Source: Coriobacteriia bacterium (GTDB taxonomy: Bacteria > Actinomycetota > Coriobacteriia > Anaerosomatales > PHET01). From it: a stretch of 48,336 nucleotides of DNA. Positions within the stretch are counted from its first letter, which is position 1; every line of letters starts with the position of its first letter. The position numbers and the translations under genes are program-made. The stretch covers positions 1 through 48,336 of the forward strand of contig JBBREQ010000003.1 of NCBI GenBank assembly GCA_038202795.1, given 5' to 3'. This document shows, piece by piece, positions 4,820 through 22,708 of this stretch. The notes beneath the pieces were generated by a model. That model was not told the origin of the DNA and did no database searches. It worked only from the letters and a program-made list of their open reading frames with translations.

Positions 4820-4831
4820 GGTCGCTCAGAG

Positions 4832-5184
4832 GTGGAGTGGGCCTGTAAGCGGGGTTCTGTCGTGAACGACCATCTATCTGGGACCAGCGTCGCCGCTGGC
4901 CTCAAGCGGGCGTACCCGAGCGAAGGCCGGGCCGGCCATAACCGCTCCTATTCGCCCTTGCTCCGGGTGGGGTTTGCCAAGCCGCCATGTCTCCATGGCG
5001 CTGGTGCGCTCTTACCGCACCGTTTCAGCTCTCCTCCGCCGAGTCGCCCCAGCGGGGGGTTTTCTTTTCTGTGGCACTTTCCGTCGCGTCACCACGCCCT
5101 GCCGTTAGCAGGCACCCTGCCCTGCGGAGCCCCGACTTTCCTCACGGTCCACAAGGGGCCGCGCGGCCGTCCAGCCCACTCCGC
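4832..5184 (-). ncRNA. rnpB: RNase P RNA (type A)
   Basis: Minus strand has GAGGAAAGUCGGGGCUCC near the 5' end, GGAAAGUGCCACAGAAAA, GAAACGGUGCGGUAAGAGCGCACC, UAGAUGG and ACAGAACCCCGCUUAC near the 3' end. P1 is GGAGUGGGC/GCCCACUCC. Confidence 0.97.
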
Positions 5185-7143: not shown

Positions 7144-7220
7144 TGGTAGCCCGTACGGGATTCGAACCCGTGATCTCCGCCTTGAGAGGGCGGTGTCCTA
7201 AACCGCTAGACGAACGGGCC
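7144..7220 (-). tRNA. tRNA-Glu (anticodon CTC)
   Basis: Minus strand reads GGCCCGTTCGTCTAGCGG...CCGCC-CT-CTC-AA-GGCGG...GGTTCGAATCCC...ACGGGCT-A-CCA. Confidence 0.97.
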
Positions 7221-7225
7221 AAGCT

Positions 7226-7301
7226 TGGCAGGGGTACTAGGGCTCGAACCTAGACTCTTCGGAACCAGAATCCGACGTGTTGCCAGTTACACCATACCCC
7301 T
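7226..7301 (-). tRNA. tRNA-Gln (anticodon CTG)
   Basis: Minus strand reads AGGGGTA-TGGTGTAACTGGCAACACG-TCGGA-TT-CTG-GT-TCCGA...GGTTCGAGCCCTAG-TACCCCT-G-CCA. Confidence 0.97.
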
Positions 7302-17229: not shown

Positions 17230-18462
17230 ATGACTGATGAAACCACACCAAAGCCGCCCGAAGCCGACGCCGATTGGTTCGCTGAGCTCTCTGACTCGGC
17301 ACTGGGACCTGCGGGGCCGACACCTGAGAAGGCGGAGCCGCTTCAAGACGACGCATTCGAGGGTGCTGCCTACCTGCCGCCGCTCGACCGCGATCGTCCG
17401 CCCCGCACGCCCCTCGTGCCCCGGTGGGCGCTGATCGCTCTGATCTCCGCTGTTGCCGCAGTCGTCGTGATCGTCGCCATCTCGCTGGTCGTTGGTTCGG
17501 TCAGACGAGTGATTGTGCCCGACGTAGTCGGGGCCACCATGACCCAGGCGAGCTCTACTCTGGCGGGCGCTGGGTTGGTCGGTCAGGTCAGCGAACGCCG
17601 CTTCTCCCCCGAACCCGACGGCACGGTGCTGGAGCAAGACCCTGCGGCTGGCGCAGAACTGAGCAAGGGCGATGAGGTGTCTCTCGTCGTCTCGGCGGGC
17701 ACGGAGGACTTCTCCATGCCCGATGTCATCGGGGAGCCGGTTTCGTCTGCAAGCGCCACACTGGCCGAGAAGGGACTCGTTGTCAGCGTGGAGACACTCG
17801 TCTCTGATGCACCGAGCGACACGGTTCTGGCCTCGACGCCCGGACCGGGCTCGCTCGTTCGCACGGGTGATCGCGTTATCTTGCAGGCTGCAGCCTCCAC
17901 GGTGCGGGGTGTTGTCCTGCAGCCTTACAGCCTGACCGGCGTCGCGGTCACTGTCGATGCTGCTCCGCCCACTGCTGGCAGTCCGGACGTCGCTCTTGAG
18001 GTCGCACGGCGGGTCGGTGCGCTTCTCGAAGCATCGGGGGCGTCGGTGACGATGCTCAGATCCACGGCCGACAGCTCCACCACGGAGGCGGAACGTGCGA
18101 AGGAGGCGGCGGAGGCCACGTCGACTCTGGCGATCGGATTCGGGTTGAGCGCTGTCTCGACCGCCGGTCGGGTTGTGCAATCGCCGTCTCAGGGCACGGC
18201 TCAAGCGATCGCGTCGGCGTCATTGCTCTCTTCGGCGGTGACTTCGGAGCTCGTGGGCGTCGCACCGCCCACATCTGCGGTATCCTCCCCGTCAGACCCC
18301 GTGCTCAGTGCATCCCGCTCGGGATGGGTTCGTGTGCTCTTGGGTTCACCTATCGCCCGAGAAGACCAGGCGCTCTTCGCCGATCCCAACTGGGCGGACA
18401 AGGTCGCTCGCGCCGTCTACACGGCTGTCGGCCGCACCTATGGTGTCGTGGAACAGCCGTGA
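17230..18462 (+). CDS. Membrane protein: TM helix, two PASTA domains and a degenerate N-acetylmuramoyl-L-alanine amidase (Amidase_3-like) domain
   Basis: Hydrophobic helix WALIALISAVAAVVVIVAISLVV. PASTA motifs VPDVVG...GTVLEQDP and MPDVIG...TVLASTPGPG. C-terminal LEASGASVTMLRS...ERAKEA...A.AVY amidase-fold pattern without metal ligands. Confidence 0.75.
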   Translation: MTDETTPKPPEADADWFAELSDSALGPAGPTPEKAEPLQDDAFEGAAYLPPLDRDRPPRTPLVPRWALIALISAVAAVVVIVAISLVVGSVRRVIVPDVVGATMTQASSTLAGAGLVGQVSERRFSPEPDGTVLEQDPAAGAELSKGDEVSLVVSAGTEDFSMPDVIGEPVSSASATLAEKGLVVSVETLVSDAPSDTVLASTPGPGSLVRTGDRVILQAAASTVRGVVLQPYSLTGVAVTVDAAPPTAGSPDVALEVARRVGALLEASGASVTMLRSTADSSTTEAERAKEAAEATSTLAIGFGLSAVSTAGRVVQSPSQGTAQAIASASLLSSAVTSELVGVAPPTSAVSSPSDPVLSASRSGWVRVLLGSPIAREDQALFADPNWADKVARAVYTAVGRTYGVVEQP

Positions 18463-19466
18463 GGTGGCGCTCCTTTACGGTAGCGGCCTGTGCTCTGGCG
18501 CTGGCGCTGAGCGTTCCTACTGGTGCGTCCGCCGCTTCCCAGGCGCAGCTCAAAGCGCGACTCGACGCGCTGAACCAGCAGGCGGCTGCCGCGGGTAAGC
18601 GATACTCCAACGCCTACTGGCAGCTAGATGAGGCGGACGTCAAGCTATCGCGCACGAATCGTAAGATCAAGAAGACCCGCAAACAGCTGACTGCGGCGCG
18701 CAAACGGCTGAACAACCACGCCAACGCCATCTATCGCCGAGAGAATCTCGACGCGCTGACGTTTCTCGTGGGTGCGCGGACCTTCCAGGATCTAGTCACG
18801 CGAATGGACTATTTCAGCCGCATCGGCGTTACCGATGCCGAGGCGGTCACTCAAGTCGAGCAGCTCAACAAGCGACTTCTTGTTCAGCGCACACAGCTCA
18901 AGGATGAGCGGGCGGTGCGGACCAAGGACGTCAGGAGGCTGCGTGGTGAGCGTGACAGGCTTCAGGCCAGACTCAGATCAACATCAGATGAGTATCGTCG
19001 GGTGCGCGCTCAGTTGGACGCGCAGCGCTCGGGAGGCCGCCTTCCTGCGGGCGTGAGAGCCGCACCGGGGCCAAATGGCATGGTGTTCCCGGTTGCGGGG
19101 GCAAACTACTACTCCAACACGTGGGGCGCTTCGCGCTCGGGAGGGCGCAGGCGGCACCAGGGCACGGACATAATGGCCCGACGGGGAACTCCCGTTGTGG
19201 CCGTGCTGTCAGGGCGCGTTCGCGCGTCGAACAACGGGCTCGGTGGTCGAACGCTCTGGGTTACTGCTGACAACGGATGGGGCTTTTATTACGCGCACCT
19301 CGATCGACAGATCGTGCGTTCGGGGCGCGTGAAGGCAGGACAGGTCATCGGGACGGTGGGGTCGACGGGTAACGCTCAGGGCGGCTCGCCCCATCTGCAT
19401 TTCCAGATACACCCTCGCGGCGGGGGACCGGTCAACCCCTACACGTATCTGAGGTCGATGGAATGA
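18459..19466 (+). CDS. Secreted coiled-coil (CwlO/EnvC-like) M23 (LytM) peptidoglycan endopeptidase
   Basis: Signal peptide, long basic coiled coil, RRHQGTDI, YYAHLD, GQVIGTVGSTGNA and PHLHF; GTGA overlap with the upstream gene. Confidence 0.9.
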   Translation: MRWRSFTVAACALALALSVPTGASAASQAQLKARLDALNQQAAAAGKRYSNAYWQLDEADVKLSRTNRKIKKTRKQLTAARKRLNNHANAIYRRENLDALTFLVGARTFQDLVTRMDYFSRIGVTDAEAVTQVEQLNKRLLVQRTQLKDERAVRTKDVRRLRGERDRLQARLRSTSDEYRRVRAQLDAQRSGGRLPAGVRAAPGPNGMVFPVAGANYYSNTWGASRSGGRRRHQGTDIMARRGTPVVAVLSGRVRASNNGLGGRTLWVTADNGWGFYYAHLDRQIVRSGRVKAGQVIGTVGSTGNAQGGSPHLHFQIHPRGGGPVNPYTYLRSME

Positions 19467-19485
19467 CGTGTGCCGCGCATCGCTG

Positions 19486-19494
19486 TGGTAGAGT
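19486..19494 (+). promoter_or_regulatory. Extended -10 promoter for the riboswitch-thiT-thiN leader
   Basis: TG-G-TAGAGT about 19 nt upstream of the aptamer. Confidence 0.45.
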
Positions 19495-19512
19495 CGTCCA
19501 CGTTCTGATTCC

Positions 19513-19597
19513 CGTGTCGGGAGCTGCTGCAGGCGGCTGAGAGGCGGTTTGACCGCGACCGAGAAGACGGCCCTGGTAATGCAGGGTTCGCACCACG
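19513..19597 (+). promoter_or_regulatory. TPP-class (thi-box) riboswitch variant
   Basis: P1 CGUG/CACG; P2 UCGG/CCGA; GGGAGC; P3 GCUGC/GCGGC; CUGAGAG; P3a GCGG/CCGC; P5 CCCUG-GUAAUG-CAGGG. Upstream of thiT-thiN. CCUGAU and GCGnAGGGA are absent. Confidence 0.8.
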
Positions 19598-19634
19598 ACC
19601 CGCGCTCACGCTCGGGGCGCCTGCCTTGCATCTC

Positions 19635-19671
19635 CCTCGTTTGTCGGGTCGAGCGATCCGAGAAAGCGAGG
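19635..19671 (+). promoter_or_regulatory. SD-sequestering hairpin (translational expression platform) for thiT
   Basis: CCUCGUUU/AAGCGAGG and UCGGGUC/GAUCCGA stems bury GAGG 7 nt before GTG 19679. CGACCCG (19596-19602, overlapping P1) could pair instead with CGGGUCG (19645-19651). Confidence 0.6.
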
Positions 19672-19678
19672 TACAACT

Positions 19679-20266
19679 GTGCGCAATGAACGTGTACGTG
19701 TGATCGTGGAGATCGCCCTCAGCGTTGGTCTGGCGGCTGTCTTGTCGGTGTGGAAAGTGACGTTACCGTGGAATATTGCCGGTGGCAGCATCTCGCTGGC
19801 GATGTTGCCGCTGTTCGTGCTGGCCCTGCGTCGCGGTGTTGCCGCAGGCATGGTGGCAGGTCTGCTCTACGGTGTCGCCGACTACGTGATGGAGCCGTTC
19901 TTCGTGCACCCGGCCCAGGTATTTCTCGACTATGCGGTCGCGTTTGCCGTGATCGGTTTCGCGGGGATAGGCTCACGCTCGATCAATGCCGTCGCCGTGG
20001 ATGCGCCGACCTGGCGTACGTCACTGCTGGTCGTGGCTTGGACATGCGTCGGCGCAGCCGCACGATTCGCGGCCTCGGTCGCCTCAGGCGTGGTGTTCTT
20101 CGGCGCGAACGCACCCGCCGGGCAGCCCGTGCTGGTTTACTCGCTGCTCTACAACGCGAGCTACCTGGTGCCCACGTTCGTCGTCACGGCCGCGCTTGCG
20201 GCAGGAATCGTCCCGGCTCTTGTCAGGGGTGTGCCGGTGAGCGCCCCGCCTGTCATCAATGGATAG
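19679..20266 (+). CDS. thiT: ECF transporter S-component for thiamine
   Basis: GGSISLAMLP...RRG, HPAQVFLDY and SGVVFF...AP.GQ...YSLLYNASYLVP match the ThiT signature. Confidence 0.9.
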   Translation: MRNERVRVIVEIALSVGLAAVLSVWKVTLPWNIAGGSISLAMLPLFVLALRRGVAAGMVAGLLYGVADYVMEPFFVHPAQVFLDYAVAFAVIGFAGIGSRSINAVAVDAPTWRTSLLVVAWTCVGAAARFAASVASGVVFFGANAPAGQPVLVYSLLYNASYLVPTFVVTAALAAGIVPALVRGVPVSAPPVING

Positions 20267-20274
20267 GGGTGCCG

Positions 20275-20940
20275 ATGCGAGTTCTTCTGGTGTGTGCCGC
20301 GCCTGACCATGACGATGCAGGGCTGGTAGCGCAACTTGCCCAGGGGCACGACATGGTTGTGGCCGTTGACGGTGGCGGTGCCCTCTGCCTGCGCGCAGGA
20401 GTGGTTCCCGACCTTGTCCTTGGCGACTTTGATTCGCTCAGTGGTGAAGATCTGCGCACTCTTAAACAGCGCGGTGTTGAGATTGTGAGCTACGATCCGC
20501 TCAAAGATGAGACTGACCTGGGCCTTGCGCTCGAGACAGTCCGGGCCCGGGGTGCGACCTCAGTGACGGTGACGGCCGCGTTCAGTGGGAGACTGGACCA
20601 CTCGCTTGCTGCAGCCGGACTCCTTCTGCAGGCAATCGATCTGAGCCCTGTGATCCAAGAGCCGAGACTCCGCGGGTGGCTCATGGCGCCCGATGCGCGC
20701 TGTTCGCTTGAGCTGCACGGTCGGGGGGCGACCTTCTCGGTGATCGCACTGGCGCAAGGATCACGTGTCGATCTGGTGGGCGCGCGATGGTCGGGGCCGT
20801 CGATTGAGCTGCGTCTGCTCGACTCGCGGGGCGTGAGCAACCTCATCGATGCCGACTCGATGCAGGTGACCACCACGCTCGGCGCCGTACTCGTCCTCAG
20901 CCCGGCTGACGAGATGGGGCGGATGGCAGAAGCGCGTTAA
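20275..20940 (+). CDS. thiN: Thiamine diphosphokinase
   Basis: AVDGG, PDLVLGDFDS, KDETD, GRLDH and RGVSN. Confidence 0.92.
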   Translation: MRVLLVCAAPDHDDAGLVAQLAQGHDMVVAVDGGGALCLRAGVVPDLVLGDFDSLSGEDLRTLKQRGVEIVSYDPLKDETDLGLALETVRARGATSVTVTAAFSGRLDHSLAAAGLLLQAIDLSPVIQEPRLRGWLMAPDARCSLELHGRGATFSVIALAQGSRVDLVGARWSGPSIELRLLDSRGVSNLIDADSMQVTTTLGAVLVLSPADEMGRMAEAR

Positions 20941-20986: not shown

Positions 20987-22708
20987 ATGGAAACAGGCAC
21001 TCGAACTATCGTATTGGTCGTGGGTATCTCCGGTGCGCTCTTGGGTGCCGGAGGGCTTCTGCTTGACTCCGTGGGTCTCGCTTGGTTTGGATTGGTCGCG
21101 TGCGGTTTCGCGATCGTTGCCTCGGTGAACCTGCAACCCGAGCCGCATGGTCTCACATGGGATCCCCCGACAGTCGCTCATACGACCGTGTCGCCACCCG
21201 TACCGGACAGGCGGCCGGTCGCTGCCCCTGCAGGGGTGGAGCCGGTCGACGTGGTGTCCGCTCTCGGATCCGCCGCCGGTGCATCCGGTGAAGTGCTCTC
21301 AGCCCATCTTTGGTTGGTCGACGCCGCATCGAAGACACTCCGGTTGGTGGCTGCTGCTGGACCCCAGCGTCCGTCAACCGATCCCGTATCGATACAGGGC
21401 ACTGTGCTAGGAAAGTCACTGAGCAGCGGTCAGGCCGTTCTCGAGCGAGAGGCACTTCTGTTCGTGTCGGGTGATGAGAGCACGATGTGGCGCTACGCCG
21501 TTCCCGTCAGTGCGGGTGAGGTCAGTGGCGTTGCGGCGATTGATGTTGCGTCGGATGATCCGGACCGGGGAGTGTTGACAGAGGCGGTCTCGATGCTGAG
21601 AGCCTCGCTCGCGGGATCATTGGCGCTGCATGTCGCGCGGATGGAGTCGGCTGCCGCTCGCACCCTTCTGGAGACCGCGGGGGACCTCGCGCGCCTCGTG
21701 GACGCGCGCTCAGTGGTGGAGTTGCTGCTCGCTCGTGCGTTGGTCCTCGCTGGCGCGCAGACAGGGTCGGTCATGTTGCTTGATGACGACGGCGCCCTGT
21801 CGATCTCGGCATCTCACGGGTTGCCGTCAGGAGTGGTAGAGAGCACCAAGGTGTCGGAAGGCGAGGGTATTGCAGGCTGGGTGCTGGCCACGAACAAGTC
21901 ACTGGTTGTCGAGGACCTTCATGACAAGGGCGCCCGTGCACGTCGGCACGGCATCCGTTCAGCGATGGCTGTGCCCATCGCTGATGACGACGGTGTCCTT
22001 GGCGTGCTCAACGTGGGCAGCCGGTTGTTCCAGGCGCGCTTCTCGGCTTCTCACCAGATGGCGCTCGAGGCACTGGGGCGCATTGGGGCTGTGGCGCTAC
22101 GTAACGCACGCGCGATCGAGGCTTCCAGGACGTTGTATTTCGACACTCTTCGGGCCCTGTCTCTGGCGCTCGAGACCAAAGACCCCTACTCGCGTGGCGC
22201 AACCGACCGGGTGCTCGAGCTTGCGACCGCCCTAGGGGTCCAGATGGGCCTGGAAGAACGGGAGCAGTCCGCCCTCAGGGTCGCAGCGCTGCTGCATGAC
22301 GTGGGGATGGCAGCTCTGGGAGACGCTGCGATCGTTGAGAATCGTCCACTGACGACAGTGGAATGGGGCATGATTCAGATGCATCCGGTGATCGCCTCTG
22401 ACGTGCTGACTCAGGCGCCGGCGTTGGCCGATGCGGTGCCGATCGTCTACCACCACCACGAGCACTATGATGGGCGAGGGTATGTCTTGGGCATCTCGGG
22501 AGAGCGAATCCCGCTGGGCGCGCGCGTGCTCGCGGTCGCCGATGCATTCGTGGCGCTGACCTCCGAGCGGCCGTATCGCCCGGCTATGGCACAGCCCTAT
22601 GCTCTGCAGGAGATCGTGAGTAAGTCAGGGACACAGTTCGACCCGGAGGTCGTGCAGGCGCTTGAGCGGCATCTCGGAGAGTTGAAGCAGTCCGAGGCGC
22701 GAGCCTGA
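20987..22708 (+). CDS. Membrane-anchored GAF plus HD-GYP domain protein (possibly degenerate)
   Basis: Two N-terminal TM helices. GAF region GEGIAGWV...SAMAVPI...GVLNV. HD-GYP region ALETKDPY, LLHDVG, HHHEHYDGRGY, IPLGARVLAVADAF and GTQFDP. Confidence 0.85.
   Translation: METGTRTIVLVVGISGALLGAGGLLLDSVGLAWFGLVACGFAIVASVNLQPEPHGLTWDPPTVAHTTVSPPVPDRRPVAAPAGVEPVDVVSALGSAAGASGEVLSAHLWLVDAASKTLRLVAAAGPQRPSTDPVSIQGTVLGKSLSSGQAVLEREALLFVSGDESTMWRYAVPVSAGEVSGVAAIDVASDDPDRGVLTEAVSMLRASLAGSLALHVARMESAAARTLLETAGDLARLVDARSVVELLLARALVLAGAQTGSVMLLDDDGALSISASHGLPSGVVESTKVSEGEGIAGWVLATNKSLVVEDLHDKGARARRHGIRSAMAVPIADDDGVLGVLNVGSRLFQARFSASHQMALEALGRIGAVALRNARAIEASRTLYFDTLRALSLALETKDPYSRGATDRVLELATALGVQMGLEEREQSALRVAALLHDVGMAALGDAAIVENRPLTTVEWGMIQMHPVIASDVLTQAPALADAVPIVYHHHEHYDGRGYVLGISGERIPLGARVLAVADAFVALTSERPYRPAMAQPYALQEIVSKSGTQFDPEVVQALERHLGELKQSEARA

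Follow-up and report, generated by a model that had tools for sequence, protein, structure and literature searches.

A TPP-riboswitch relative with a fused P4-P5 helix and no pyrophosphate pocket precedes thiT-thiN in a Coriobacteriia-related order

Introduction

TPP riboswitches are the commonest riboswitch class and a drug target. The canonical form (THI element, RF00059) combines a P1/P2-P3/P4-P5 junction with the motifs GGGAGC and CUGAGA and an L5 loop UAAU(G), is associated with thiamine genes and exerts OFF-type control. The contacts of its pyrimidine pocket have been described (PMC3764141, PMC7824784), the thiazole is contacted by G72 while A69 is stacked on P3 (PMC2018614, PMC7824784), and the pyrophosphate with its metal ions is held by G60, C77 and G78, U59 and A80 being highly conserved as well (PMC3764141, PMC7824784).

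Departures from this pattern were remarked upon by McCown et al. (2017, RNA 23:995), according to whom TPP variants with mutations in the core for pyrophosphate (P4-P5) have an affinity for thiamin that is close to that for TMP and TPP. In the same remarks such mutants are placed in many bacteria, sometimes sharing one genome, and a manuscript in preparation by Roth, McCown, Zhang, Lee and Breaker is cited for them. In full-text searches of the literature, a full description of TPP variants without the pocket was not found beyond the remarks of McCown et al. (2017). A thiamine-pathway riboswitch for a non-TPP ligand is given by the HMP-PP riboswitch (thiS motif; Atilho et al., 2019, eLife 8:e45210), reported as a small, terminator-embedded aptamer that is mostly found before thiS. 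In thiamine auxotrophs of the acI lineage (Nanopelagicales), leaders preceding the thiamine importer PnuT have been annotated as THI elements (Kang et al., 2017, Sci Rep 7:42252).

Here, the leader of thiT-thiN in a contig of a Coriobacteriia bacterium (48,336 nucleotides, the whole of which is referred to as the window) was compared with these systems. A previous sequence-only reading had described it as a TPP-riboswitch variant lacking the pyrophosphate-sensing pocket and had left it conceivable that such a variant was undescribed, which does not hold, as variants of this kind are mentioned by McCown et al. (2017). The fused-helix group to which the leader belongs shares with the canonical riboswitch the junction, the motifs GGGAGC and CUGAGA, the L5 loop, the association with thiamine genes and, probably, the OFF-type control, but is devoid of the J4-5/J5-4 loop and of U59, G60, C77, G78 and A80 and instead contains one 8-bp P4-P5 helix with no or one bulge. 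With the variants of McCown et al. (2017) it has in common the mutations in P4-P5, the occurrence in many bacteria and, at times, a second TPP-type aptamer in the genome; that these variants have the fused-helix architecture is our assumption, whereas the range of taxa, the consensus and the location before thiT-thiN and pnuT come from the present analysis. Unlike the HMP-PP riboswitch, the element in the window has a full-size TPP-like fold, is located before thiT-thiN and is not accompanied by a detectable terminator. The likeness to the acI PnuT leaders lies in the arrangement GAC-(7-8 bp)-GUAAUG loop-(0-1 bulge)-G-AA, although these leaders precede PnuT and not an ECF ThiT, are AT-richer, have GAA instead of GCA at the 3' junction and score 38.5-65.2 bits with the covariance model R1 built in this work. 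The fused-helix variant is therefore not new in principle; new here, as judged from sequence comparison, is a consensus with covariation, the near-universal single copy before thiT-thiN in one Coriobacteriia-related order and the kinship with the acI pnuT leaders.

Results

The thiT-thiN locus and its genomic background

The leader occupies a 212-nt gap between a gene for an M23 peptidase (18324-19466) and thiT (19679-20266, + strand), which starts with GTG and encodes the ECF S-component for thiamine (PF09515, 4.7e-40; TIGR02357 equivalog, 137 bits with a cut-off of 108). It is followed by thiN (20275-20940, +), encoding a thiamine pyrophosphokinase (TPK; PF04263, 6.4e-24; TIGR01378 equivalog, 108.8 bits with a cut-off of 76.4). 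The gene directly after thiN (20987-22708, +) encodes 573 aa, which comprise a hydrophobic stretch at the N terminus followed by a GAF and an HD_5/HD (HD-GYP-like) domain. In the genome of the window (2.49 Mb, 95.8% complete), ThiC, ThiE and ThiM gave no match, ThiG-like and ThiD-like proteins gave weak partial matches only, and EcfT was present. Since matches to ThiC, ThiE and ThiM were absent, thiT-thiN looks like the sole route of this genome to TPP, and from its gene content the source organism looks like a thiamine auxotroph.

The window harbors a TPP-like aptamer below the Rfam threshold

When the whole window was searched with cmscan at Rfam gathering thresholds, no TPP match was obtained, and the only hits were a bacterial RNase P class A RNA (4830-5182, - strand, 278 bits) and two tRNA genes (7147-7220 and 7229-7301, both on the - strand). 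A relaxed cmscan of positions 19400-19750 aligned RF00059 to 19507-19608 (+) over all 105 model positions with 25.4 bits (E 0.005), which does not reach the curated gathering score of 54.3 bits; the same match had an E-value of 0.0085 when searched against the whole 2.49-Mb genome. Besides TPP, an E-value of up to 10 yielded just one chance match to ffh in the leader. A second TPP-like match in the genome (contig C17, 19.2 bits, E 0.29) was treated as chance, and apart from it RF00059 detected no credible TPP-like aptamer elsewhere in the 2.49 Mb.

Based on the RF00059 alignment, the model R1 and covariation, the variant aptamer extends from P1 through P1' at 19512-19598 (+), and its three-way junction of P1, the P2-P3(-P3a) arm and the P4-P5 arm is present, as the model aligns in full length and all five helices are supported in relatives. 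P1 is formed by 4 bp (C19513-G19516 with C19594-G19597); the pair just outside of it is a C-A mismatch in the window and C-G in most relatives. The pyrimidine-sensor arm (19517-19562, +) matched the RF00059 consensus column for column, with P2 at 19517-19520/19559-19562, GGGAGC at 19519-19524, P3 at 19523-19527/19533-19537, J3-2 CUGAGA at 19537-19542 and P3a at 19544-19547/19553-19556. The L5 loop GUAAUG was located at 19576-19581, within GGUAAUGC at 19575-19582, and contains the equivalents of A69 and G72. Thus, the pocket for the aminopyrimidine (J3-2 U39-A43 UGAGA and the G19 region GGGAGC) is present, with counterparts for the pyrimidine contacts G40, G42, A43 and G19 and for the thiazole contact G72 in L5. 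These data bear out the sequence-only reading, by which P1 was intact, the pyrimidine half canonical and L5 kept.

P4 and P5 are fused into one helix

The opposite arm (19568-19590, +) deviated strongly from the consensus. There, GAAGA-CGGCCCUG-GUAAUG-CAGGGUUCG-CA stands where the consensus has GAACCUGAU...CGuAGGGA; in other words, CGGCCCUG...CAGGGU(U/C)CG with the flanks GA (5') and CA (3') takes the place of CCUG-AU-CCGG...CCGG-CG-UAGG. The two strands form a helix of 8 bp (19568-19575/19582-19590), in which C19568 pairs with G19590 and G19569..G19575 with C19582..U19588, leaving C19589 as the single bulged nucleotide, and the J4-5/J5-4 internal loop is absent. In the cmscan alignment two J4-5 positions and one J5-4 position were deleted and a non-pair was flagged in P4. 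The nucleotides of the pyrophosphate pocket (P4 U59/A80, J4-5 G60, J5-4 C77 and G78; E. coli thiM numbering) have no counterparts in the window, and ordinary base pairs (C19568-G19575/C19582-G19590) are found in their place. The claim that the pyrophosphate side had been replaced and P4 and P5 fused was thus confirmed, with covariation and compensatory changes in relatives supporting the helix. The possibility that the canonical J4-5/J5-4 nucleotides could be regained by aligning the sequence differently was rejected, as no such alignment was obtained from cmscan and the fused helix covaries.

In the alignment of relatives, a new conserved pocket in the fused helix was not found, as conserved unpaired nucleotides were lacking. 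The three middle pairs of the helix covary and the bulged base varies freely among relatives; it is because of this free variation of the helix middle and the bulged base that no new pocket is visible. G-U wobbles or mismatches occurred frequently in the helix middle, with one G-U pair or more in 22 of the 40 distinct sequences.

The fused-helix aptamer is conserved as a single copy throughout the order

In none of 61 genomes of the order to which the window belongs was the RF00059 cut-off reached. A first sub-threshold search of these genomes with RF00059 revealed two aptamer types, of which the window-like one (class B) was represented by 7 loci. The covariance model R1 was built from 10 class-B sequences including that of the window, which scores 101.2 bits as one of the training sequences. 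With R1, a single match at 61.0-106.8 bits was detected in 126 of 146 genomes of the order, spread over 23 of the 25 families sampled, while the next best matches did not exceed 39.6 bits. Seven of the remaining genomes had class-A-like matches only (≤39.6 bits) and 13 had no match at all.

In a MAFFT alignment of the 10 class-B sequences 93.1% of the cells were paired and 9 pairs had changed on both sides; none of 500 shuffles reached the observed pairing, and slid registers paired to 31-42%. For the fused P4/5 helix, 5 of the 8 pairs had changed on both sides and 93.8% of cells were paired among the 40 distinct sequences, in an alignment that was fitted to the model and hence leans towards the modelled structure. 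GGGAGC, CUGAGA, GGCUGAGAGG and CGACCGA were each conserved to at least 97% in 45 relatives, and L5 read GGUAAUGC in 39 of the 40 distinct sequences, the single exception being GAUAAUGC. The resulting class-B consensus is aCCGUnUCGGGAGCuGC...GcGGCUGAGAGG-P3a-CGACCGA-n(3-7)-GAC-helix-GGUAAUGC-helix-G-CA-n-aCGG.

The gene context was fixed as well. Among 45 loci (including repeats; 40 distinct aptamers), thiT started 43-95 nt past the model end in 44, the 45th being cut by the contig end, and thiN came after thiT in 43 of these 44. A ligand pocket that hardly varies, combined with stems that have changed in a compensatory manner, indicates that the aptamer fold is under selection. Decay or chance was ruled out by the single-copy conservation across the order and the covariation, and the earlier argument against simple decay is upheld by these data and by the constant thiT-thiN context. 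On this comparative evidence, the element in the window is a maintained TPP-riboswitch relative under selection.

A second aptamer type with a canonical pocket occurs in the same order

The other type (class A; L003, e.g. L003:1501-1629, L004, L005, L006, L007, L009, L010, L011, L173, L174 and L175) keeps the canonical pocket nucleotides GAACCUG...GCGCAGGGA and has an additional hairpin inserted between P4 and P5. This GC-rich insert of about 14-20 nt is located on the 5' side and thereby turns the J4-5 loop into a junction. Class-A scores were 33-43 bits, under the RF00059 cut-off. In all 8 of 8 loci the gene downstream was one for thiamine metabolism (thiS-thiF in 2, thiM in 5 and thiE in 1), and class-A aptamers are followed by sequences consisting of a hairpin and a U-run, which are terminator-like. 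Both types were found together in six genomes (G052, G035, G032, G140, G084 and G085).

The leader is predicted to control translation

Downstream of the aptamer, RNAfold of the leader predicted a hairpin that sequesters the SD sequence (19635-19671, +); folding of 19628-19682 alone gave the same hairpin with -22.2 kcal/mol. In this structure an anti-SD (19635-19642) pairs with 19664-19671, enclosing an inner stem (19644-19650/19655-19661), and the SD sequence GCGAGG (19666-19671) lies 7 nt upstream of the GTG start. The sequestor proposed by the sequence-only reading was therefore recovered. Its proposed anti-sequestor (19596-19602, CGACCCG) fared less well: it is a perfect 7-nt complement of 19645-19651 in the window, but the pairing is degraded in the same-genus relative L021, and it was rejected as a conserved element. 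A terminator-like site was not found in 19350-19760, and transcription termination was rejected as the platform.

A candidate switching segment, CGCCUGCCUUGCAUCUCCC (19617-19636, +), is complementary to the 5' part of the aptamer (GGGAGCUGCUGCAGGCG, 19519-19535) and abuts or overlaps the anti-SD. In the minimum free energy fold it was paired with the 5' half of the aptamer. The duplex had -33.1 kcal/mol versus -28.5 ± 3.4 for shuffles, a value equalled by 10% of 500 shuffles and not significant alone, and for short segments the anti-aptamer complementarity in the window was matched by 51.5% of 200 shuffles. Among 39 relatives, 14 contained a C-rich, anti-SD-bearing element 14-30 nt upstream of the start codon that complements the 5' strand of aptamer P1/P2 beyond shuffles, a typical pair being UUCCCGUACGGU against ACCGUAUCGGGAG. 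Equilibrium folding of 39 loci gave a mean probability of an unpaired SD of 0.34 unconstrained versus 0.28 with the aptamer enforced; enforcing the aptamer reduced exposure of the SD by more than 0.1 in 10 loci, raised it in 1 and left it unchanged in 28. SD exposure thus barely changed, and a clear switch was not seen at equilibrium. The complementarities in the leader suggest a possible three-part switch, in which the anti-SD would pair either with the GGGAG strand of the aptamer (ON) or with the SD (OFF), and the control may be kinetic.

Upstream of the aptamer, a hexamer TAGAGT is located at 19489-19494 (+), preceded by TGTGG and about 18 nt upstream of P1, which we take to be a possible -10 element of the actinobacterial TANNNT type. 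A sigma-70 consensus scan of the thiT leader region detected no promoter.

Fused-helix aptamers precede other thiamine genes in Actinomycetota

In a sample of 151 genomes of the class, R1 matched in families f26 (2/2), f28 (9/10), f30 (3/3) and f32 (1/1), and matches were absent from f27 (0/24) and f31 (0/30). A motif scan with one genome per species yielded at least 80 loci; as its pattern preselects GAC-N6-GGTAATGC, the sample shows breadth and not frequency. All 80 motif loci listed matched R1 (32.7-97.7 bits). Most of those listed belong to Nanopelagicales (acI, Planktophila) and Coriobacteriia, accompanied by a few Mycobacteriales, Frankiaceae, Pseudonocardia and Modestobacter and one Acidoferrum. 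The contigs of two fused-helix aptamers (L075 and L066) bear the labels Alistipes onderdonkii and Eubacteriales, but as both aptamers are similar in sequence to those of Coriobacteriia, the bins may be mislabelled or contaminated.

Among the 80 loci listed, the downstream gene encoded a PnuT-type transporter in 51, ThiT/TPK in 10, ThiD in 5, a CytX-like permease in 4, ThiM and ThiC in 2 each and a ThiO-like protein in 1, and was of unclear kind in 5. A fused helix of 7-8 bp was common to the leaders of pnuT, thiT, thiD and thiM of gut Coriobacteriaceae and three cytX-like genes among the loci listed. The design is thus not tied to thiT, since the fused P4/5 helix also precedes pnuT, cytX-like genes, thiD and thiM in other Actinomycetota.

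The loci were divided into continuous and near-canonical ones by a crude regular expression, a split that is descriptive and mislabels a few (e.g. L071, L090 and L052). Those classed as continuous include L113 (Mycobacteriales, CytX-like), L109 (Pseudonocardia, ThiD) and L111 (a thiC leader of Acidoferrum). The near-canonical leaders L094 (Frankiaceae, CytX-like), L125 (Modestobacter, ThiO-like), L127 (a thiC leader) and L128 (actinomycete MAG) are without the J4-5 AU only: CG of J5-4 is kept in L094, L125 and L128, and CCUG in L094, L125 and L127. Of 18 fused-helix or near-canonical leaders from other Actinomycetota, preceding pnuT, thiD, thiM, cytX-like, thiC and thiO-like genes, none reached the RF00059 cut-off (54.3 bits, Rfam 15). 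As the Rfam gathering score misses both types (0 of 61 genomes and 0 of 18 leaders), B1 regulons are under-annotated in these organisms.

Discussion

The reading to which we give slightly better than an even chance is that the leader contains a functional, cis-acting descendant of the TPP aptamer, which acts as a translational OFF switch on thiT-thiN and responds to thiamine vitamers largely irrespective of their phosphorylation. The element would then control translation of the proteins for thiamine import and pyrophosphorylation. It has retained the aminopyrimidine pocket, the three-way junction and the L5 loop for docking on P3 and contacting the thiazole, and ordinary base pairs have replaced the loop for Mg2+-pyrophosphate. 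As the pocket is gone and nothing conserved has taken its place, binding is expected via the pyrimidine pocket and L5 only, with little discrimination between thiamine, TMP and TPP. The thiamine moiety would be recognised with little or no reward for phosphates, each of the three vitamers would contribute, and what is sensed would be the vitamin-B1 pool as a whole. Once ligand is bound, the 5' strand of the aptamer including GGGAG would be held in P1/P2, leaving the C-rich anti-SD to pair with the SD and turn translation OFF; without ligand, the C-rich stretch would pair with the 5' strand of the aptamer and the SD would be freed. Whereas the anatomy, conservation, covariation and gene context are shown by the data, we infer this switching path, and likewise the ligand range, the latter from the loss of the pocket and one published remark (McCown et al., 2017).

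This bears on the suggestion of the sequence-only reading that the variant senses an unphosphorylated ligand. The idea of free thiamine as a ligand agrees with the remark of McCown et al. (2017), but what is remarked there is a lost discrimination between thiamin, TMP and TPP and not a switch to a new ligand, and nothing points to HMP or HMP-PP.

It is rather unlikely, though the strongest of the alternatives, that the aptamer is still selective for TPP. Its phosphate side would then have been rebuilt, for example by means of metal ions that the groove of the fused helix would hold at its G-U wobbles or at the junction-side bulge, and its physiology would be that of any thiT-linked TPP riboswitch. 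For an operon that combines import with TPK, the logical signal for feedback is TPP. The logic of repressing thiN at high free thiamine is not obvious. A putative TPP riboswitch is stated to precede thiT of Lactococcus lactis (PMC8862789), and in the genome paper on acI the pnuT leader is taken as an ordinary THI element (Kang et al., 2017). Many members of the group have G-U pairs or mismatches in the middle of the helix, and metal ions bound there could still give phosphates an advantage. Since the same design is found before thiD and thiM of gut Coriobacteriaceae, genes that are normally regulated by TPP, the fused helix may simply be the way in which this lineage builds a TPP sensor. However, G60, C77 and G78, the residues that contact pyrophosphate and metal, are all without a counterpart, and neither the position nor the identity of the wobbles and bulges is conserved. 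Moreover, the type with the canonical pocket is kept alongside in six genomes, and P4-P5 mutants lose discrimination according to the remark of McCown et al. (2017).

An unphosphorylated pyrimidine compound other than the thiamine vitamers, such as HMP, a thiamine breakdown product or an antivitamin, is an improbable ligand. That the aminopyrimidine pocket alone is clearly intact would fit such a compound, as would the position of fused-helix relatives before cytX-like (HMP-type) permeases and thiD. In the order of the window, though, the RNA is tied to thiT and TPK, which handle intact thiamine, and ThiE or ThiM for the use of HMP or thiazole was not found in the window's genome. The near-invariance of L5 with its equivalent of the thiazole-contacting G72 (39 of 40 distinct sequences) also argues against it, and the two-arm fold would probably need a ligand of sufficient length to span the arms. 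Hardly any weight can be given to a relic without ligand response, whose leader would serve as a constitutive structure or as the binding site of another factor, for while the score is far under the Rfam cut-off and folding predicts a paired SD whether the aptamer is enforced or not, the nucleotides of the ligand pocket are near-invariant over at least 24 families and the stems have changed in a compensatory manner.

A wider proposal appears possible but doubtful: the fused-helix aptamers might constitute a distinct riboswitch class and the main regulator of B1 importers (ThiT, PnuT, CytX-like) and salvage kinases across Actinomycetota, answering to free thiamine or the summed vitamer pool and not to TPP. 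If this were true, genomes with both types would run a two-signal control of B1, with TPP governing synthesis through the canonical-pocket aptamers (thiS-thiF, thiM, thiE) and thiamine governing import through the fused-helix aptamers (thiT-thiN). A large natural group without the phosphate pocket shows specificity drift inside one riboswitch class. Should free thiamine or the whole vitamer pool indeed be read, models of uptake regulation would need to be revised for B1-auxotrophic Actinomycetota, among them many Coriobacteriia and the acI lineage, which is abundant in freshwater.
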